Below, piece by piece: positions 51,710 to 64,000 of a DNA stretch of 64,000 nucleotides (position 1 is its first letter; every line of letters starts with the position of its first letter). A model generated the notes under the pieces. The model saw nothing but the letters and a program-made list of their open reading frames with translations, was not told the origin of the DNA and searched no databases. The position numbers were made by a program, and so were the translations under genes. The DNA is from Dictyostelium discoideum (taxonomy: Eukaryota). Where the stretch lies: contig CM000150.2 in the NCBI GenBank assembly GCA_000004695.1, positions 1,216,001 through 1,280,000 on the forward strand, read 5' to 3'.

Positions 51710-54700
51710 GTAATTTTATAGGAAAATCACCATCAACTATGAATTTTAATTTTTCTTCATTTAGTGATGTTCAAAATTTAACAATTAAATATATTGGTTC
51801 AGATCCAAATTGGACATATTATAATGATTTAACGTCAAGTAAAACAATGTCAAGTTGGACTATAGTATCTTCAAATGTCCCATCTTTTAATTTAATGAAA
51901 ATTAATTTTTTGTAAATATTTAAATTTATTTTTTTTTTTTCATATTTTTTATTTTTATATTTATTTATTTTTTTTTTTTTTATTTTTTTTTTTTTTTTTT
52001 ACTAATTTTTTTTATTTTTTTTATTTTTTTTATTTAGAAACATATTTTTAACAAAACAATATTCAGAAACAAGTAAAAATAATTATATAACATTTAAAGA
52101 TATTTCAATAGTTAAATTTGAATTATTTAATATTTCAAATTCATTTGAAATTCAATTCCCTGTTGAAATTTTTAATTTTGAAAGAAATTCTCAAGAAATG
52201 TAATTTTATTATTTTATTTTTACCATATAAATATGTATATATATTTAAAATTATTAATATTTTTAAAATTTTAGTGAATTTTCAATTCCATTTTCAAAAG
52301 TTCCAAATTTATTAGATTTTTCAACATTTACAAATAATAGTGGAATTAAAAAGTTAACATTATCAAATGCAGGTTTAAATTTTAATTTTAATTTAAAATT
52401 TCCATTTATAAATTTACAAAATTCATTTTCAAATATTAATCAATTGTAATTATAATTATTTATTATTATTTTTTTTATTATTTATTATTATTATTTATTT
52501 TTTAAATAATTTTATTAATTTTTTATTTTTAATAATTTACACAAAACAAAAAAGTTCATTTAATAATGGTAACTTTAATAATATACCAGATTTATCAATT
52601 TTTGGAATGTCAATTTCAATATTAGATTTATCAAATAATTTAATTAGTGATACACTTCCAGAATTTGAAAGAAGTAAAACAAATTTAAAACATATAAATT
52701 TAAGTAAAAATAATATTACTGGAATAATACCAAGTTCATGGTGTGAAATAGAAAATATTGATTTAACAAATAATAATTTAAATGGTGATTTACCATTATG
52801 TTTTTCTGTATGTATAATTTTTTTTTTTTTTTTTTTTATAATCATTTAAAAAAATGATAATTAACCACTACTTTTTTATTTTTGAAAATGAAAAACAGTG
52901 TTTTTATTCAATAAATTCAAATCAATTTATTAATAATCCAAATTTAATTGTACCAACAACAACAAATAAAATTAGTTATTGTAAAACTTCACCAAATTTG
53001 ATATTTAATAATAATGATAATTGTTTTTATTTTTTTGGATTAGATTTAGGTTCAAAAGTTTATTTTAAAACAAATCAAGATTTTATTTTTGCAAATGATT
53101 GGGAAATTATAATTCCAAATAAAAAATTTAAAAATTGTATTAATAATGAAACTGTATTAAATGACTTACCAACATTATTTGAATTTTATTATCCAAGTAA
53201 TGGTAATAATTTTACATTATCAACTGAAAGAAAGAATCCAATTATTACAGAAGTTCAAATTCCATCTAGTTCATTACCTGGAACTGTTATATTCATTGGT
53301 TCTTATTTTTCATACAATTCATCAATTATTAATATTTTAGTAAACGGGTATCAATGTTTAATAGAAGTTTCCAAATTTAATTATTTATTATGTAAAACTG
53401 ATATTGACGCAATAAATGAAAATAAATATATATTTTCAATTATAACAATTGAAACAATATCGTCAACACGGATTTCATTTATTCCAACTATTGAATCAAC
53501 TAAAATTATACAATGTAATGAATCATGTTTAGAAAATCAATTTTGTGCTAACGATATTGGGAAATGTAAATGTTTGGATGGCTATTTCGGTAGTACGTGT
53601 AATGGAATCGTACATTTTGTTTCAAGTGTTGATTCAGTTGATAGATTAGGTGGTATTGTTACATTGTATGGTGAATTTGGACCAGTTCATGATAATGCTT
53701 CTATTGAAATCGGTAATTTACTTTGTGAAATAATTGAAATTAATAATTATCAAGCTTTATGTAAATTAAATAGTTTTCCTGAAAATTCTTTAAAAATTCA
53801 ATTATTAAATTTCACACAAAATAATTTAATTTGGATATCAAATGAAATTTATCATATTCGTGAAACAATTTTAAATTGTCCAAATGATTGTAACCAATTT
53901 TCAGAATTAAAATCTGGTATATGTAATAAAACTATTGGTTTATGTAATTGTAATATTGGTTGGACAGGTTTTGATTGTAGTAGTAGTATTAATGTTAATT
54001 CAAATTCATCATCAATAAAACCAAATACAACAATAGATAATAATGGTACAACAACGATTTCTTTAGATTTTTTAAATTTTCAAATTTTAATTACAAAATT
54101 ATCTGAAATTAAATTTGATAATTCAATTTATAAAACTTTTAATCTTTTAAATAATTGGAATGTTTTAATTGATAATAATAATAATAATAATAATAATTTA
54201 TATAAATTTCAACAAATTATACCAGGTAATAGAGGTATTATTGAATTTACAATTGAAGAATCAACTAATGATAAAGAATATGAATTTATTGATACAAAAT
54301 ATAAACTTGAAAAAGGTTCAATTAAAATTTCAATTAATATTACAAATTACCAATTTAATAATCAATTAAATACATTACAATTGGAAATTGAAACAAAAAT
54401 AAATGATTATTATTATAATAATAATAGTAATTATAATAATTGTAATAGTAAAAAAGAATCATTAGAAACTTTTAATCAACAACAATTAAATTATATAATA
54501 ATTCAAAAAGATAAAAAACAATTATATGGTCGTTTTATTAATAGAATTTTATCAAATGGTAAACCAACTTTAATTGATACAAAATCAATTAAAAATTCTG
54601 ATAATACTTCAATTACTTTATTAATGTCAATACCACATTGTACAAAATCTTGTATTATTGATCCTGGTAAATATATTATTTTATTTTATTTTATTTTTTA

Positions 54701-55013
54701 ATTTATTATTATATTAATATTTTTTATTTTTTGAAAAAAAAAAAAATAAAAAAAAAAAAAATAAAAAAAAAAAAAAAAAAAAGATTTTTCAGCATTATTA
54801 TCAATTGATCATAAATCATCATGTAAAACTGATAGTGATGGAAATATTATAAATGAATCAGTTGATAAAGGAGTACCAAAAACAACAATAATTGCTGTTA
54901 TTATTTCAATTGTTGGCGTAGCAACCATATTTGGTATTGGTTTATTAATATATAGAAAGAAAAGAGTGGAAAATGAATTAGCTATAAAATTAAAAAATGC
55001 TCAAAAAAAATAA
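50897..55013 (+). CDS. Type-I membrane protein with a signal peptide, LRR repeats, IPT-like and EGF-like modules, a TM helix and a short cytoplasmic tail (paralogue of 37447..41146). CDS join(50897..50978, 51089..51278, 51370..51438, 51519..51587, 51711..51911, 52038..52199, 52275..52445, 52555..52807, 52899..54666, 54784..55013).
   Basis: The signal peptide is MKLIFIIILFIIFKVKPFLS. The first intron sits at the same site and phase as in the paralogue (…SE|C split T|GT, gtaaaa). The LRR exons are FSIPFSKVPNLLDFSTFTNNSGIKKLTLSNAGLNFN… and LDLSNNLISDTLPEF…LKHINLSKNNITGIIPSSW…IDLTNNNLNGDLPLCF. EGF-like modules are CNESCLENQFCANDIGKCKCLDGYFGSTC and CPNDCNQFSELKSGICNKTIGLCNCNIGWTGFDC. The last exon encodes TM IIAVIISIVGVATIFGIGLLIY plus the RKKRVENELAIKLKNAQKK tail. 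Junctions were derived by hand and several may be off by a few nt. Confidence 0.6.
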
Positions 55014-55526
55014 TTTTTTTTTTTTTTTTTTGTTGTTTTTTCAAAATATTATAATATAACCAAAATAATATAAAAAAGAATAATAAAAAATATCTTTCTA
55101 TAAAAAACAACAGGTTTTATTTTTATTTATATGGGGACACAAAAATAAACCACCCAAAAATACACAAAAAAAAAAAAAAAAGTTTTAAATCAAAAAAACA
55201 ATTACTTTTTTTTTTAAAATATTTTGACAGGATGTAAAAATTTAAGAATATTTTTATTTATTTTTTAAAATAGGACAATACCTAGCAGTTTTGTTTTTTT
55301 TTTTTTTTTTTTTAATATAAAAAAATTAAAAAAAAAAAAAAAAAAAAAAGTATAAATTTAAGGTTAAAAGTTAAACTTTTAAATTAAAAAAAAAAAAATA
55401 AGAGTTAAAACAAAAATAAAAAAATAAAATAAAAAAAAAAAATTAAAAAAAAAAATAAAATAAAATAAAATAAAATAAAATTAAAAATTATTTTATTAAT
55501 TTATAAGTTTTTATAATAAATTTAAA

Positions 55527-57446
55527 ATGAAATTAATATCAGTATTAATTACATTTTTATTAGCTACAGTGATTTATTCACAAAGTAAAAAAAATTTTAC
55601 AATTTGATTTTTATTAATTTTATAAACTAAATTTGAAACTAATTAGCCAAACAAATTTTTTTTTTTTTTTTTTTTTTTTTTATTTCTTTAATTTTTTTTT
55701 TAAAAAAATAAAATTAGCCAGTCCAGCAACTTTAAAATTTACTGTTCAAGTTTATGATCAATTCCCAGGTTTTAATAATAATTTTGAACCTGGATTAGGT
55801 AATGCTATTACCGGTTTAATTAAATCAACTTTAAATTCAACATCGCGTGTACCTGAATTGGTTTCAACAGAAGCTCGTATTGTTAAAAATATTAATGGTG
55901 GGATTATAAACCCATCATTATTCCCATACTTTTTCAGTCCACAACAAGATTCAAGTTTACCAGGTCAAAATTCACCATTAAGTCTTGATTTAATTTTCAC
56001 ATATGATACAACTAGAAAAATTTATGTTTATGATAATCAAAACTTTTTCCCAAGTAAGTAAATAAATTATAATAATTTTATTTTTTAAAAATTTTAATAT
56101 TGATTAAATTTTAATTTAATATTATAGTTGATAATCAAGGTTTTGATGTTGATCCAGCAAAAAGAATTTATTTAAATGAGAAAAAAACATATCATAATTA
56201 TCATTTTTGTATGAAAATGAATACTGTTTTTACTTATAAAGGTTATGAAGTATTTAATTTCCGAGGTGATGATGATGTTTGGTAAGTAATTATTTAAAAA
56301 AAAATATATTTTAAATAATTAATAATATTAACATGATTTTTATTTTATTTTTTATTATTTTAATTATTATTATTTTTTTTATTTTTTTTATTTTTAAAAA
56401 AAAAGGGTATTTATTAATAATAAATTAGTTATTGACCTTGGTGGTTTACATAGTCCAATTGGTACAAGTGTAGATACAATGACTTTAGGTTTAACAATTG
56501 GTAATTCTTATAATTTTGATCTATTCTTTTGTGAACGTCATACTGGTAAGTTTTATTATTTTTTATTTTTTTTTTAAAAAAAAGGTAATTTTATTTTATT
56601 TTATAAATATTTATAAAAATTATTTTTTTAGTTGGTAGCACAATTAAAATTGAAACCAATTTATTATTTTATTGTCCATTTAAAGATTATTGTGGAGTTT
56701 GTCAAGGTGATGGTAGTTCATGTTGTAATCCATTAACAACTTGTAATGATAATAATCAATGTACAATTGATTCATGTCCATCAGCAAATACAATTATTGG
56801 TCCAGGTTCAATCCCTAATTATTGTTTTCATACACCAAAAATTAATACAAATCCAATTGATATTTGTTTCAATTATCAATGTAATTCATCAACTGGTAAT
56901 TTCGATCCAATTCCAATTCCATGTCTTGATAGAAGTTCTGAATGTTTATCAACAATTGGTTGTAATTCTACTGTTGGTTGTCAATATGAAAGTATTTGTA
57001 ATTCAAATGTTTGTAATATTCAAAATCAATGCTCATCAAATGGTACTTGTGTTCCAAAATCATCAAATGACTGTGGAATTGAATTAGATGGTCAAGTTGA
57101 TAAATGTAAAATTTATTCATGTGATTCAAATGGAGGTGTTGGTTGTATTAAAGAAGATAAATGTAAACCAAGTAGTAATCCATGTATTTCAACTCAATGT
57201 AATGCTACTAACGGTCAATGTTATGAAACTCAAATTCCAGGTGATATTTGTGATTGTGGTTGTGGTATTCCAGAAAATAAATGTAAAGTATCATGGTGTA
57301 CACCAGAAGGTATTTGTCAACCAAAATTCAAATCTGAAATTGATGATAATAACTCTTGTACATTAGATTCATGCGATCCATGTACTGGTATTATCTCTCA
57401 TATGACCGCACCACAATGTTTAAGTTGTAATCAATGTTCAAATTAA
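55527..57446 (+). CDS. PA14-domain secreted protein with a C-terminal Cys-rich repeat region (PsiA-like family), copy 1. CDS join(55527..55584, 55718..56053, 56128..56281, 56406..56545, 56631..57446), about 500 aa.
   Basis: The signal peptide is [19 protein letters not shown]. The PA14 core spans three exons (…[29 protein letters not shown]|[20 protein letters not shown]…[21 protein letters not shown]|VGSTIKIE…). The last exon has about 40 Cys in CxxxC / CNxxNxC repeats (…[30 protein letters not shown]…CLSCNQCSN*). All donors are GTAAGT and all phases are consistent. The Cys-rich exon is absent from the ORF track because it contains no start codon. Confidence 0.7.
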
Positions 57447-57941
57447 TTTTTAAAAAATAAAATAAAAATGAGAAATAATTAAAATAATTAAAACAAATAA
57501 ACATTAAAATGATATTTAGGTTTTAAATTTAAATTCTAAAATCACTATTAATTCTAACAATTTTAATCATTTTTATTTTTTTAAATATTTTTAAAAATTA
57601 AAACCATAATTAATAATTATTTTTTTAATTAAATAATATTTAACAAGATGTGACAAGAATTGAAATTTTTGGCACAATTTGGTCAAGTCACTAATTAAAG
57701 TTACCCCATCATGATATTTTTTAGGTGAGATGTGGGGTGGGATTGAATTAAGGGTTGTAAGACAGTTTTTTTTTTTTTTTTAATTTGATGGTTTTTTTTT
57801 TTTTTAACTTAAACTTTTTTTTTTAAGTTGGGAAACCCATAAGTGGGAAAAAAAAAAATTAAGAAAAAAAATAAAAAAAAAAAAAAAAAATTGATAATAA
57901 TTAAATTATTTTAAATTGGTTTATTTAAAGCACAGTGATAG

Positions 57942-57974
<33 letters not shown>

Positions 57975-58008
57975 GATTATTTATATCAAACTAAATAATA
58001 TATATATA

Positions 58009-58884
58009 ATGAATAATAACTTATTATCAGTATTAATTACATTTTTATTATCTACAGTGATTTATTCACTAGGTATAATTTTACAATATTATTTTTTTAA
58101 AAAATTATTATTTTATAAACTATTTTTACTAATTTTTTTTTTTTTTTTTTTTTATTTTTTTTTTTTTTTTTTTTATAAAAAAAATTAGCTAATCCAGCAA
58201 CTATAACATATTCTGTTCAACTGTATGACCAATTCTCAGGCTATAACAATAATTTCCAAACTAATGTAACTGGGGCTAGAGTTACTGGTTTAGTTAAATC
58301 AACTTTAAATTCAACGACTCGTGTACCTGAATTAGTTTCAACATCAAATGGTGGTTTAAATGATGCAGGTCATATTTTGAATCCATCATTATTCCAATAC
58401 TTTTTCAGTCCACAAATAAATTCAAGTTTACCAGCTGAAAATAATCCTTATTCTTTTGATTTAGTTTTCACATATGATAAAAATAGAAATACATATGTTT
58501 ATAATAATGAAGATTTTTTCCCAAGTAAGTAAATAAATTTTAATTTTTAATAAAATACAAATTTAAAATATTAATAAAATAATATAGTTGATCGTAAAGG
58601 TTTTGATATTGACCCAGAAAAAAGAATTAATTTAAATGGTGCAACCTATCATAATTATCATTTTTGTATGAAAATTAATTCTGCTTTTACCTATCAAGGT
58701 TCAGAATATTTCAATTTCCAAACTGACCATGAAGTTTGGTAAGTAATTGTTTTAAAAAAAAAACTATAAAATTATAAAATCAATAATAAATAATATTTTA
58801 AGTGATAAATATTAATAATATAATTTTTTAATTATTTATTAATATTATAATTATAATTTTTATATTTTTATTTTTATTATTACT

Positions 58885-58929
<45 letters not shown>

Positions 58930-59386
58930 ATTTTAATAGGGCATTTATTAATAATAAATTAGTTATTGATCTTGGTGGTATACATGGTCCAATAGCTGAA
59001 AGAATTAATACAAAAACTTTAGGTTTAACTATTGGTCGTATATATAATTTTGATTTATTCTTTTGTAATCGTCAAACTGGTAAGTTATATTATTTAAAAA
59101 AAAAAATAAAAAAAAAAAAAAAAAATAATATAAAAAAAAATTTTTTTTGAATTGGATAAATAATGTAAAAAATAAATTAAACCATAATTTTTAATTTTTT
59201 TATTTGTATTTTTTTTAATTTTTACTATTTTTATAAAACTAATTTTACTATATAATTAATTTTTTTAAAAAAGTTGGTAGTAAACTTAAAATTGAAATAG
59301 ATATAACTTATTCATGTCCATTTAGAGATTTTTGTGGAGTTTGTTTAGGTGATGGTAGTTCTTGTGCAGGTGGAAGAATTAAATAA
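58009..59386 (+). CDS. PA14-domain protein, copy 2, truncated: it ends just after the PA14 domain and lacks the Cys-rich tail. CDS join(58009..58072, 58189..58524, 58588..58738, 58940..59079, 59274..59386), about 267 aa.
   Basis: The exon structure is the same as copy 1. The signal peptide is [22 protein letters not shown]. The last exon reads [37 protein letters not shown] and then diverges into unrelated, non-AT sequence. Sequence subtype B is shared with copy 4 ([29 protein letters not shown]). Confidence 0.6.
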
Positions 59387-59509
59387 AGTCTATTCCTGTA
59401 GATTCATAAAAGAAATTATTATCGGGGTTGGAAAGTTAGTAAAAATTTGAAAAAAAATTCTTTAAAGGGCTACGCCTTAGGAAATAGACCTAACAAGCCA
59501 CCAAAGATG

Positions 59510-59542
<33 letters not shown>

Positions 59543-59815
59543 AAATTTTTTAAAAAAATTGTGACAAGAATTGAACACTTGACTTTAATTTTATTGTAGG
59601 TTCGATTCTCAGATAAATGAAATCAATATCTATTTTAATTTTTTTTTTTTTTTTAAATAATAGCCCAATTGTTAGTTGCTTCTCCTTGAGATACTAGATC
59701 TCATTACAATATCCATTTTAATATTAATGATTAGTTTTTTTATTTAATTTTGTTTGAAACTTTAGTTTCAATAGAATTATTTTGTAGGTAATTTTAAAAA
59801 TAAAAAAAATATAAT

Positions 59816-59854
<39 letters not shown>

Positions 59855-60123
59855 TTTAAAAAATTAAATCAATTAGAAAATAATGGAATTTGAATTAAAA
59901 ATTAATAATGATAATTATAAAAATAATAAATAATGGACACTTTAAAAATTAAAAACATTATTTTTTGAAACCCAAAATTTTTTTTTTTTAATTTTAAAAA
60001 AAAAAAAAAAAAGATGGCAATGAAGTGTGATCACACCGTATTTCTCATTAAAAAAAAAGAATATTTTTAAAGTCGATAACAAATTATTTTTTTTTTTTTT
60101 TAATATACAAAATCTTAAATACC

Positions 60124-60221
60124 AAAAAAAAGGGCGATGTTTCATATAAAGTTTCCAGACGGTTTTTTTTTTATTAAAAAAAATCAAAAAAAATTAAATC
60201 ACGGCTTTTTTTAGATTTTTT

Positions 60222-60261
<40 letters not shown>

Positions 60262-60350
60262 TCGCCATGAATTATGATCAATATTGATGTTGGACGGTTT
60301 TTTTTTTTAAAAAAATCTAATACAAAATTAAATCACTTCTTTTTTTTTTT
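60124..60350. repeat. Two to three imperfect ~125-bp direct repeats containing gat(c/g)gc(c/a)atg … gacggttttttttt … aaattaaatcac(g/t)(g/t)ctttttt.
   Basis: Units lie at ~60124-60215 and ~60252-60350, with a weaker copy at ~60010-60090. They sit in the spacer between PA14 copy 2 and copy 3. Confidence 0.6.
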
Positions 60351-60790
60351 TTTTTTTTGTTTTTAATTTTTGTTTATTAAGTAATTTGAAAAAAAAAAAG
60401 AAATCGTTTTTTTTTTTTTAGTTTGAACATTGGGGTGTTTTAAAAAATAAGTGGAGATATTTAGAATTTGATAAAAAAAAATTAAAAATAACCAATGATT
60501 GTGAAAAAAAATAAAAAAAAAACTTTGTTTCCAAAGATAAAAAATTATTCTATTAAATTGATATATTATTTGAAAAAAAAAAAAGTAAAGGTTGAACATA
60601 CTGAAGATTTTTAAAAAAAAAAAAATTAAAATAAATAATTTTAAAGTTTTGATTGGTTAATTAAAATTAATTTTAATTATATTTTAAAAAAAAAAAAAAA
60701 ACTGTTAATTTAGTTTAGTATAAATAGTTTAGTAAAAAAAAAAAAAATTCAGTTTGTTTTAAAATAAAAAACTAAACAATAATATTTAAA

Positions 60791-61559
60791 ATGAAATTAT
60801 TATCAGTATTAATTACATTTTTATTAGCTACAGTGATTTATTCACAAAGTAAATAAAATAATATTGTTTTTTCAAATTATTTTTATAAAAACTAATATTA
60901 AAACTAATTTTTTATATTTTATTTTCTTTTTTTTTTCTTTTTTTTTAAAAATTAGCTAATCCAGCAACTTTAACATTTACTGTTCAAGTTTATGATCAAT
61001 TCCCAGGCTATAATAATAATTTCCAAACTAATGGTGCTGGTGCAAGAGTTACTGGTTTAATTAAATCAACTTTAAATTCAACAACTCGTGTACCTGAATT
61101 GGTTTCAACAGCTACTGGTGGTTTAAATGGAGTAGGTCTTATATTGAACCCATCATTATTCCCATACTTTTTCAGTCCACAACAAGATTCAAGTTTACCA
61201 GGTCAAAATTCACCATTAAGTCTTGATTTAGTTTTCACTTATGATACTACTAGAAATATTTATGTCTATAATAATCAAAACTTTTTCCCAAGTAAGTAAA
61301 TTAATAACAAATTTGTTTTTTTATAAAAAAAATAATATAAAATTTATATTAATATAAAATTACAATAAAATATAAAATTAAAATTAATAAAATAATATAG
61401 TTGATAATCAAGGTCTTGATGTTGATCCAGCAAAAAGAATTTATTTAAATGGTGCTACATATCATAATTATCATTTTTGTATGAAAATGAATACTGTTTT
61501 TACTTATAAAGGTTATGAAGTATTTAATTTCCAAGGTGATGATGATGTTTGGTAAGTAA

Positions 61560-61600
<41 letters not shown>

Positions 61601-62869
61601 AGTATTAATTTTTTATTTATTATTATAACTATTTTTAATTTTATTTTTTTATTTTAAAAGGGTATTTATTAATAACAAATTAGTTATTGATCTTGGTGGT
61701 GTACATGGTCCATTAGCTGCAAGTGTTGATGCAACAACATTAGGTTTAACAATTGGTAATTCTTATAATTTTGATTTATTCTTTTGTGAACGTCAAACTG
61801 GTAAGTTTTATTATTTTTTATTTTTTTTAAAAAAAAAAACCTATTAATTTATTTTATTAATTTTTTTATTTAATTTTTTTTTTTTTAAAAAAAAGTTGGT
61901 AGTACAATTAAAATTGAAACCAATTTATTATTTGTTTGTCCATTTGAAGATTATTGTGGAGTTTGTCAAGGTGATGGTAGTTCATGTTGTAATCCATTAA
62001 CAACTTGTAATGATAATAATCAATGTACAATTGATTCATGTCCACCAGCAAACACAACTATTGGTTCAGGTTCAATCTCTGATTATTGTATTCATACACC
62101 AAAAATTAATACAAATCCAATTGATATTTGTTTCAATTATCAATGTAATTCATCAACTGGTAATTTCGATCCAATTCCAATTCCATGTCTTGATAGAAGT
62201 TCTGAATGTTTATCAACAATTGGTTGTAATTCTACTGTTGGTTGTCAATATGAAAGTATTTGTAATTCAAATGTTTGTAATATTCAAAATCAATGTTCAT
62301 CAAATGGTACTTGTGTTCCAAAATCATCAAATGACTGTGGAATTGAATTAGATGGTCAAGTTGATAAATGTAAAATTTATTCATGTGATTCAAATGGAGG
62401 TGTTGGTTGTATTAAAGAAGATAAATGTAAACCAAGTGAAGATAAATGTCATGTCGTATCATGTGATTCATTAACTGGTTCATGTATTACAACTCCACTC
62501 GAAGATCCATTAGCTGGTTTACATTTATGTTCAATTGCACGTTGTAATTCATCAACTGGTGAATTTACATATGATCCAATTATTTGTACACCAAGTAGTA
62601 ATCCATGTATTTCAACTCAATGTAATGCTACTAACGGTCAATGTTATGAAACTCAAATTCCAGGTGATATTTGTGATTGTGGTTGTGGTATTCCAGAAAA
62701 TAAATGTAAAGTATCATGGTGTACACCAGAAGGTATTTGTCAACCAAAATTCAAATCTGAAATTGATGATAATAACTCTTGTACATTAGATTCATGCGAT
62801 CCATGTACTGGTATTATCTCTCATATGACCGCACCACAATGTTTAAGTTGTAATCAATGTTCAAATTAA
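60791..62869 (+). CDS. PA14-domain secreted protein with a Cys-rich tail, copy 3 (subtype A, like copy 1), about 550 aa. CDS join(60791..60848, 60955..61291, 61400..61551, 61661..61800, 61896..62869).
   Basis: It is about 90% identical to copy 1 at the nucleotide level across exons, introns and the 3' flank. It is about 50 aa longer, through an extra Cys-repeat block (…[53 protein letters not shown]…). Confidence 0.7.
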
Positions 62870-63367
62870 TATTTTAAAAAAAAATAAATAAAAATAAGAA
62901 ATTATTAAAATAATTAAAACAAATAAAAATTAAAATGATATTTGAATTTGAAATTTAATTTTTAATTTCATAATTTAATTTACTAATTATTTTTTACAAT
63001 TTTAATTATTTTTATTTTTTTAATAATTTTAAATATTTATTAATTAAAAAAAATTTAACAAGATGTGACAAGAATTGAAATTTTTGTTCACTTGGGACAA
63101 TTTGTTCAAGTCACTAATTAAAGTTACCTCATCATGACCTTTTTTGTGTGAGATGTGGGGAGGGGTTGAATTATGGGTTGTAAGATATTTATTTTTTTTT
63201 TTTTAACTTGATGTTTTTTTAAACTAAATTTTGGAAATCCATATGTAAGAAAAAAAAATAATAATTAAATTTATTTAGTATAGAAAAATTTTATTTTAAA
63301 TTGATTTATTTAAAGCAAAAAAAAAAAAAAAAAAAAAAAATTAAATTTATTTATATTAAACTAAATA

Positions 63368-64000
63368 ATATTTATAATGAAATTATCAGTATTATATTTT
63401 TATTATCTACAGTGATTTTTTCACAAGGTATAGTTTTACAATTTTATTTTTTAAAAATTATTTTTAAAATTATTACTGCTCTTTAACTAATTTTTTTTTT
63501 TGTTTTTTTTTTTTAGCTTATCAAGACATTTTAACATTTAATGTTGAACTTTATGATCAATTCCCAGGTTATAATAATAATTTCCAAACTAATGGAACTG
63601 GTGGTAGAGTTACTGGTTTAGTTAAATCAACTTTAAATTCAACAACTCGTGTACCTGAATTAGTTTCGACATCAATTGGTTCAAATGATGCAGGTCATAT
63701 TTTGAATCCGTCATTATTCCAATACTTTTTTACTCCACAATTTGATTCAAGTTTACTAGGTGACAATTATCCATATGATTTTGAATTAGTTTTAAAATAT
63801 GATAAAAATAGAAATACATATGTTTATAATAATGAAAACTTTTTCCCTAGTAAGGAAATAAATTTTAATTTTTAAAAAAATACAAATTCAAAATATTAAT
63901 AAAATAATATAGTTGATGGTCGAGGTTTTGATATTGACCAAAAAAAAAGAATTTTTTTTAATGGTACTATATATCATAATTATCATTTTTGTATGAAAAT
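63368..64000 (+). pseudogene. PA14-domain gene, copy 4 (subtype B), partial at the window end. The exon-1 reading frame is broken by a 4-nt deletion; downstream exons are intact.
   Basis: Exon 1, atgaaattatcagtattatatttttattatctacagtgattttttcacaag|gtatag, translates MKLSVLYFYYLQ* versus [21 protein letters not shown] in copy 2. Exon 2 (63517..~63850; …[50 protein letters not shown]…) and the start of exon 3 are open and conserved. Confidence 0.5.

Follow-up and report, generated by a model that had tools for sequence, protein, structure and literature searches.

Mosaic evolution of a probably old two-gene repeat in the psiE–psiS–psiB cluster of Dictyostelium discoideum

The end (55500-64000) of a 64,000-nucleotide stretch of Dictyostelium discoideum AX4 DNA (GenBank assembly GCA_000004695.1, contig CM000150.2, positions 1,216,001 to 1,280,000; the window in the following, with a G+C content of ~20%) contains four genes of the PA14 family, all on the forward strand and all with GT..AG introns. 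It is very likely that they represent the annotated psiE–psiS–psiB cluster of AX4 chromosome 1, followed by an unannotated psiS-like pseudogene and, beyond the window, by an internally deleted psiB-like relic and an HSP90 gene, and that the locus is an old repeat of a two-gene unit which has since undergone mosaic evolution and codes for putatively secreted PA14 proteins. The genes psiE, psiS and psiB are known, named and annotated, and their adjacency is visible in the AX4 annotation. The locus is an ordinary gene-family cluster and no new system.

An original prediction, made from the sequence alone, had proposed four same-strand PA14 genes of the Psi family that share a five-exon plan. After GT..AG splicing at the gene coordinates of this prediction, copies 1 to 3 have five exons each, and an exact-sequence look-up identifies their products residue for residue as PsiE (Q55FQ6), PsiS (Q55FQ5) and PsiB (Q55FQ4) of D. 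discoideum AX4. These matches confirm the coordinates, the exon plan and the assignment to the Psi family, and they exclude exon joins at odds with the database proteins. Copy 1 is the A-type gene psiE (55527..57446 (+); exons 55527-55584, 55718-56053, 56128-56281, 56406-56545 and 56632-57446) and encodes 500 amino acids (aa). Copy 2 is the B-type gene psiS (58009..59386 (+); exons 58009-58072, 58189-58524, 58588-58738, 58940-59079 and 59274-59386), which encodes 267 aa and has no cysteine-rich (Cys-rich) tail. Copy 3 is the A-type gene psiB (60791..62869 (+); exons 60791-60848, 60956-61291, 61401-61551, 61661-61800 and 61896-62869) with 552 aa. Copy 4 (63377..64000 (+)) is the psiS-like pseudogene, which ends at the window edge and consists of a frameshifted exon 1 (63377-63427), exon 2 (63517-63849) and an exon 3 that begins at 63913; its ATG is located at 63377 and not at 63368. 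For copy 4, the protein database holds no AX4 protein. Upstream within the window, tblastn detects no further PA14 copies. Literature searches on psiB, psiE and psiS turned up no paper treating these genes.

Repeat units, their age and exchange between them

Self-BLASTN yields two collinear matches with offsets of 5263 and 5423 bp. The first pairs 55515-57173 with 60778-62437 (85.7% over 1714 columns, E=0), and the second pairs 57162-58675 with 62585-64000 (82.6% over 1525 columns, E=0). The second match is continuous: it begins in the A-type tail, crosses the intergenic DNA and extends into the B-type gene. The two-unit repeat is real and far beyond chance, and the unit-level collinearity that a self dot-plot had been expected to reveal is borne out. 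Between psiE and psiB, exons 1 to 5 are 98.3, 88.5, 95.4, 89.3 and 98.5% identical, the last value leaving aside an indel of 159 nucleotides (nt). The introns share 70-87.5% identity with many indels. An estimate of about 90% identity for copies 1 and 3 is thus fair for the exons and generous for the introns. The two 3′ flanks, 57447..58008 (+) between psiE and psiS and its paralogue 62870..63376 (+) between psiB and copy 4, are 86.2% identical.

For the sequence beyond the window edge, an independent AX4-like assembly (L002), which over 12 kb shares 99.56% identity with the window, stands in for the AX4 locus. Here, copy 4 is followed by a chimeric relic, in which ~50 nt resembling exon 2 (psiB 61020-61071) are joined to the last ~210 nt of the Cys-rich tail (psiB 62551-62764), and then by the HSP90 gene, which lies on the opposite strand. 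In its exon-2 piece, the relic resembles psiB (85.6% identity) more than psiE (77.4%). A relic with the identical join is also present in the genome FIW (L001). From these sequences, the array can be read as A1(psiE)–B1(psiS)–A2(psiB)–B2(pseudogene)–A3(relic). It represents a tandem repeat of a two-gene unit that pairs a long A-type gene, which has a Cys-rich tail, with a short B-type gene, which has none.

The age of the repeat follows from homologues spliced in three related genomes, FIW (labelled D. discoideum, GCA_054859355.1) and FIY and FIZ (both labelled D. cf. discoideum). Trees are neighbour-joining (NJ) bootstraps on the PA14 part, with a separate protein tree for the tail. In the PA14 tree, psiE of AX4, FIW and FIY forms a clade with 97% bootstrap support, and the psiB and B-type clades each reach 100%. 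Since FIW and FIY both possess one orthologue of psiE and another of psiB, the duplication is old and predates the split between AX4 and the sibling lineage D. cf. discoideum FIY. The repeat has evolved as a mosaic since then.

The exon comparison indicates what this mosaic consists of. Exon 2 mismatches amount to 3-8% between orthologues of different genomes and to 10-14% between paralogues within a genome. In exon 5, orthologues differ by 2.8-5.5%, while paralogues differ by only 1.5% in AX4, 2.1% in FIW and 2.3% in FIY. In the protein tree of the tail, the paralogues of FIW, FIY and FIZ cluster by genome; AX4 psiE is placed beside FIZ_g1, because both share the gap of a Cys block described below. 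The synonymous divergence (dS) between AX4 psiE and psiB is 0.17 in the PA14 part vs 0.014 in the tail. A mismatch list and sliding windows delimit a recent gene-conversion tract in psiE exon 5 (56827..57447 (+), with 62091-62870 of psiB as partner) that contains one mismatch in ~620 aligned nt, the 159-bp deletion aside. Differences between psiE and psiB restart one base past the stop codon. As judged from these patterns, the near-identity of exon 5 is the product of repeated and recent interlocus gene conversion, that is, of concerted evolution. The tract of ~620 bp is the latest of these homogenisations of A-type exon 5.

The variable part of the proteins lies in exon 2. For aa 37-91, the proportion of synonymous differences (pS) between psiE and psiB is 0.29, compared to 0.105 for the rest of the PA14 part. 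In the same segment, pS is 0.10-0.18 between orthologues and thus below the value of 0.29 between paralogues. The N-terminal PA14 part, chiefly aa 37-91, has escaped conversion and retained gene-specific sequence. The remainder of the PA14 part has probably been partly converted as well.

The indel in exon 5 corresponds to a Cys block of 159 bp (53 codons), located at 62438..62596 (+) in psiB. It is flanked by TGTAAACCAAGT (62426-62437) and ends in TGTACACCAAGT (62585-62596), so that psiB carries two copies of a 12-nt direct repeat 159 bp apart. At the deletion junction in psiE (57162..57173 (+)), a single TGTAAACCAAGT is left. Homologues with the 53-aa block occur in D. purpureum, D. firmibasis and D. 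dimigraforme; FIY g2 and g3, FIZ g2-g4 and the FIW psiE orthologue (557 aa) have it as well. Among the psi homologues compared, it is missing only from AX4 psiE and FIZ g1. In FIZ, the two 12-nt repeats flanking the block are identical, which explains how this deletion could arise more than once. The distribution argues that AX4 psiE lost the block between the 12-nt direct repeats and that psiB did not gain it. We propose recombination or slippage between these repeats as the event by which AX4 psiE dropped the ancestral block. The deletion is very young, as it lies inside the nearly identical conversion tract.

These results reverse several parts of the history first put forward for the locus, namely a recent duplication of the A–B unit followed by divergence, in which psiB acquired its Cys block, psiS was the only gene to lose the tail, and copy 4 was left without a start. 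The collinear units, the 98.5% identity of exon 5 and the frameshift of copy 4 do fit such a history. It is nonetheless extremely unlikely. In both FIW and FIY, psiE and psiB have distinct orthologues, and pS in aa 37-91 is higher between the paralogues than between orthologues. The similarity of exon 5 tracks the genome and not orthology, as expected for concerted evolution. The Cys block is found in every outgroup and in the psiE orthologues of FIW and FIY, and the truncation of the tail is common to both B-type copies, as shown in the next section.

B-type genes and the encoded proteins

Two subtypes had been distinguished in the original prediction, and the B-type motifs are indeed found in copies 2 and 4. 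The near-invariant fibro-slime motifs GDDDVWVF and CERH are kept in psiE and psiB; psiS and copy 4 carry TDHEVWAF and CNRQ in their place. The B-type genes also share their 3′ end. AX4 psiS, its FIW orthologue (…GDGSSCASGRIK*) and the protein of a third isolate (P0131) all end a few codons past GDGSSC. In the FIW orthologue of copy 4, the stop codon stands right after GDGSSC and is followed by the same ~108-bp sequence as found behind psiS. In AX4, this sequence (59387..59494 (+)) takes the place of the Cys-rich tail and has inverted termini, GTCTATTCC...GGAAATAGAC. It is located directly behind both B-type genes of FIW (L001 4112-4188 and 9242-9329), and no other copy is detected elsewhere in the window or in the homologous loci compared. 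A search for a remnant of the Cys-rich tail downstream of psiS (59387-60790) gives no match to any coding part. Because the FIW copy-4 orthologue stops at the same point with the same sequence behind it, the tail was lost before B1 and B2 separated. The short tail is a trait of both B-type copies and not a loss restricted to copy 2, as had been assumed. The B-type ancestor was thus already tailless.

In AX4, exon 1 of copy 4 has a deletion of 4 nt when compared with the other copies, and its reading frame terminates as MKLSVLYFYYLQ*. The same deletion and the stop in exon 1 are present in the independent assembly L002, which bears out the loss of the start frame predicted for this copy. In L002, exons 2 and 3 of copy 4 are open, exon 4 ends early (..LGGIHEI*) and the remainder of the gene is deleted. 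The start of copy 4 is intact in FIW. We propose that copy 4 decayed in AX4 through this frameshift and through deletion in exons 4-5.

All three intact genes pass the Pfam cutoff of 24 bits for PA14 (PF07691), with 59.2 bits for psiE (E=5e-16), 47.9 bits for psiS (E=1.6e-12) and 51.9 bits for psiB. The NCBIfam model Fibro_Slime TIGR02148 (cutoff 45) is matched with 128.6 bits by psiE, 112.3 bits by psiS and 128.2 bits by psiB. The Dicty_CTDC cutoff of 27 bits is passed by psiE (30.9) and psiB (29.1); psiS has PA14 only. Exon 1 encodes a hydrophobic N-terminus, a putative signal peptide, which AlphaFold models as a helix of residues 3-19. The AlphaFold model of PsiS, built on the family alignment, contains one β-rich domain of residues 26-240, encoded by exons 2 to 5, with a predicted local distance difference test (pLDDT) score of 91.9 and a predicted template-modelling (pTM) score of 0.86. 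In a Foldseek search of this model against the PDB, the top matches are all PA14 sugar-binding domains: MpIBP, the Kluyveromyces marxianus β-glucosidase insert, Epa9, Cea1 and Flo5. They are found with a probability of 0.9-1.0, E=6e-5 to 1e-3 and a sequence identity of 7-16%.

By homology, the products of the intact genes would be secreted via the putative signal peptide of exon 1. The β-sandwich of the PA14/fibro-slime domain would most likely bind a carbohydrate, probably a glycan, or another extracellular ligand, and the disulfide-rich Dicty_CTDC tail could serve as a stalk or matrix-binding part, as in PsiA and DicA1/PsiF. The likeliest role, drawn by analogy, is that of a putative extracellular lectin-like matrix or signal protein. 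The ratio of nonsynonymous to synonymous substitution rates (dN/dS) vs the orthologues is 0.15-0.25 for psiB and 0.31-0.65 for psiE. For psiS, dN/dS is 0.34 at a dS of 0.137 (AX4 vs the FIW orthologue), and on this sequence measure psiS looks to be under constraint.

A number of observations weigh against the history and the function put forward here. The branching order among the psiE, psiB and B-type clades receives little support in the tree (B+psiB in 27%, psiE+psiB in 23% of bootstraps), so that the data agree with a single unit duplication but do not prove it. FIY has neither the flank nor a B2 gene behind its psiB orthologue, so that either FIY has lost them or the flank-plus-B segment was copied at a later time. 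For the encoded proteins, the template-modelling scores (TM-scores) of the Foldseek matches are low (0.29-0.33), and a sequence search finds no solved relative. The changes from GDDD to TDHE and from CERH to CNRQ in psiS hit positions with at least 90% conservation among 97 family members, and given these replacements the ligand binding of psiS may be altered or lost. PsiB, PsiE and PsiS are absent from a 2026 life-cycle proteome and its supplements, in which ten other family members are named. Support for psiE, psiS and psiB from expression or protein data was not found.

The first two of these points bear on the possibility that no unit was ever duplicated. The array could have grown by successive single-gene duplications, and the likeness of A-type tail, flank and B-type head could stem from later conversion or from copying of flank plus B downstream of psiB in the D. 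discoideum lineage. We regard this course of events as rather unlikely. It agrees with conversion being demonstrably active at the locus, with the grouping ((A1,A2),(B1,B2)) not being recovered by the tree, and with B-type proteins being found only in D. discoideum isolates. FIY likewise fits, as it retains the psiE flank, a B1 exon-1 relic (ATG to ACG) and an inverted exon-2 fragment after psiE and nothing comparable after psiB. The B1 relic of FIY at the same time implies that B1 existed before the AX4/FIY split. Duplication of a whole unit is favoured by the paired divergences, which are about equal, as one event predicts: 13.8% for the flanks, 12.3% for exon 2 of B1 and B2 and 11.5-14% for exon 2 of A1 and A2. 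The third, psiB-like relic behind B2 in AX4 and FIW fits a periodic A-B-A-B-A array.

A further possibility concerns the status of the B-type genes. These, including psiS, could be non-functional remnants on the way to loss instead of a working second subtype, which we hold to be possible although not probable. Copy 4 is dead in AX4, and of B1 only a relic is left in FIY. The psiS gene has no tail, both of its near-invariant motifs are changed, and its product is undetected in the life-cycle proteome. Yet the frame, the splice sites and the short C-terminus of psiS are kept in AX4, FIW and FIR, its dN/dS is 0.34 at the dS given above, and a confident fold is predicted for PsiS.

Flanking DNA, neighbouring genes and related assemblies

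The flank between psiE and psiS is conserved after psiE in FIW and FIY. Both flanks contain a GC-richer island ~300 bp upstream of the B-type ATG (57640-57770 and the conserved island at 63055-63193), which is kept in AX4, FIW and FIY (L001 2610-2733 and 7640-7731; L003 12295-12401). The island may be old debris or regulatory DNA of the B genes, for instance an enhancer or a promoter. The flanks contain another short conserved motif, GGAAA(C/T)CCATA(A/T)GTGGGA, at 57830-57850 and about 63230-63250. Its form in the psiE flank, ACCCATAA, resembles the DUSE element found upstream of Dictyostelium small-RNA genes; the other copies do not have that form.

The spacer behind psiS together with the upstream region of psiB (59495..60790 (+)) has no counterpart in the first unit, and the regions upstream of psiE and psiB do not align past ~12 nt. 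Within this spacer, 59931-60790 matches FIW at 83% identity, and 60242-60790 matches the upstream region of the FIY psiB orthologue at 69%. The spacer also contains an 81% direct repeat (60158-60221 vs 60293-60355), both copies of which end in GACGGTTTTTTTT followed by ...AAATTAAATCAC; it is partly kept in FIW (L001 4704-4766).

Candidates for non-coding RNA were rejected. A motif similar to GGTTCGATTC near 59600 had suggested a tRNA, which is ruled out, and ARAGORN finds no tRNA in the window. Rfam gives no match at E≤1 over 55000-64000. For a structured RNA in the flank island or in the sequence with inverted termini, fold z-scores lie between -1.3 and +0.3 on either strand. In the alignment fold, the covariation term is positive and no more than one pair is compensatory.

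Upstream of psiE, 52854-55012 is the 3′ part of a gene for a 1023-aa membrane protein with leucine-rich repeat (LRR), TIG, EGF and ComC-supersandwich domains. An old gene model of 1480 aa (UPI00004E4BA5), which is clustered with both, is probably a fusion of this LRR neighbour and psiE. Such a fusion would explain why psiE shares one 90% cluster with LRR proteins that look unrelated. Two faulty automatic gene models in other assemblies can be flagged. A 769-aa model in GCA_054883475.1 (L002 10001-13775) fuses psiB and copy 4 and is a splicing artefact across dead DNA, and a 332-aa model of FIW gene 4 (L001 8003-9830) is an artefact in which B2 is spliced to the A-type relic that follows it.

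The homologous array of FIZ consists of four A-type genes and no B-type gene, with a DDE_1 transposase gene inside (L004 4629-6254). FIW differs from AX4 by ~3% even around the HSP90 gene (L002 13972-17489), with a dS of ~0.1 in the psi genes. FIW is as far from AX4 as the D. cf. discoideum isolates and may represent a cryptic lineage. Hyper-polymorphism of the locus within the species was considered and rejected, as the divergence of ~3% around the neighbouring HSP90 gene marks FIW as a distant lineage.

Comparison with known systems

In the literature, the family consists of secreted proteins that belong to the matrix or act as signals. PsiA (ψ factor) induces prespore cells, DicA1/PsiF acts in density sensing, and PsiN is listed as another signal (PMC3325183, PMC6830349, PMC4931340). 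PsiE, PsiS and PsiB belong to this named family. PsiE and PsiB combine the PA14 domain with a Cys-rich Dicty_CTDC region, as do PsiA and DicA1/PsiF, and their N-terminus may represent a signal peptide like that of these two. In contrast to PsiA and DicA1/PsiF, psiB, psiE and psiS form a subclade of their own (100% bootstrap) with ~30-45% identity to the other members. Their products are shorter, with 267-552 aa compared to about 700 aa, and PsiS has no Cys-rich tail. The quorum-sensing-type role initially suggested for these genes is a family analogy only; an activity is known just for PsiA, PsiF and PsiN (PMC3325183, PMC6830349, PMC4931340). For psiB, psiE and psiS, no signalling activity, mutant or expression pattern was found. 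With respect to the family, the present analysis makes small additions. It corrects the direction of two events, as the Cys block was lost and the truncation is shared, and it provides an example of how concerted evolution can act on single exons within a family of secreted PA14 proteins.

The PA14 part of the psi proteins is similar to the PA14 carbohydrate-binding domains of Marinomonas primoryensis MpIBP, Candida glabrata Epa, Saccharomyces cerevisiae Flo1/Flo5 and the K. marxianus β-glucosidase insert, since it scores above the Pfam cutoff and since the best structural matches of the PsiS model belong to this group. It differs from these lectin domains in the low TM-scores and the low sequence identity of the matches of PsiS. 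A likeness also exists to the fibro-slime proteins (TIGR02148) of Fibrobacter, myxobacteria and other bacteria, with many bacterial matches being 40-55% identical over the domain core. Unlike Psi proteins, bacterial fibro-slime proteins carry other partner domains, such as PKD, and no Dicty_CTDC tail. PsiS in turn departs from the fibro-slime proteins through its replaced GDDD and CERH motifs.

A gene of the group-2 dictyostelid Heterostelium album (GL290986.1; L005 8001-10838) encodes an 818-aa protein (P0006) whose PA14 part is 72.9% identical to that of PsiB; other cross-group pairs and the D. purpureum homologues reach 40-50% in this part. The Heterostelium protein is nested inside the psiB/E/S clade (100% bootstrap), contains seven extra Cys units of ~38 aa and does not have the 53-aa block. 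Contamination was considered as its source. Against this, its G+C content of 0.40 matches that of its neighbours and its DNA shares only 65-71% identity with psiB; both point to a resident gene. The sequence relationships suggest that the gene was transferred laterally long ago or that loss and conservation followed an unusual course.

A further comparison is offered by TraA of Myxococcus, in which a PA14-like variable domain and Cys-rich repeats serve kin recognition and whose authors note a parallel with PsiA and DicA1 (PMC3325183). One could suppose that the psi locus is tuned for diversity of a recognition surface: conversion would keep the Cys stalk uniform, while the 55 residues of aa 37-91 would be shielded and diverge, both among paralogues and among lineages, in a TraA-like or Flo-like social recognition. 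A related idea, prompted by the Heterostelium gene, is that the subfamily is mobile between distant dictyostelids. We consider this reading quite improbable. Evidence for a recognition function or for positive selection was not found here: the ratio of nonsynonymous to synonymous differences per site (pN/pS) does not exceed ~1.2, a value based on very few sites. In the variable exon-2 segment, pN/pS values of 0.12-1.2 come from 4-12 synonymous differences and are not significant, and positive selection was rejected for this segment. If the recognition-surface reading were true, each Psi protein would have a distinct specificity for its ligand or partner. If the variable PA14 segment sets ligand specificity, the cluster would represent a natural experiment on how social amoebae diversify their extracellular signals. 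The psi proteins and TraA share no full-length homology; their architecture is nevertheless analogous, with the psi cluster, like TraA, being variable in the PA14 region and conserved in the Cys-rich part.

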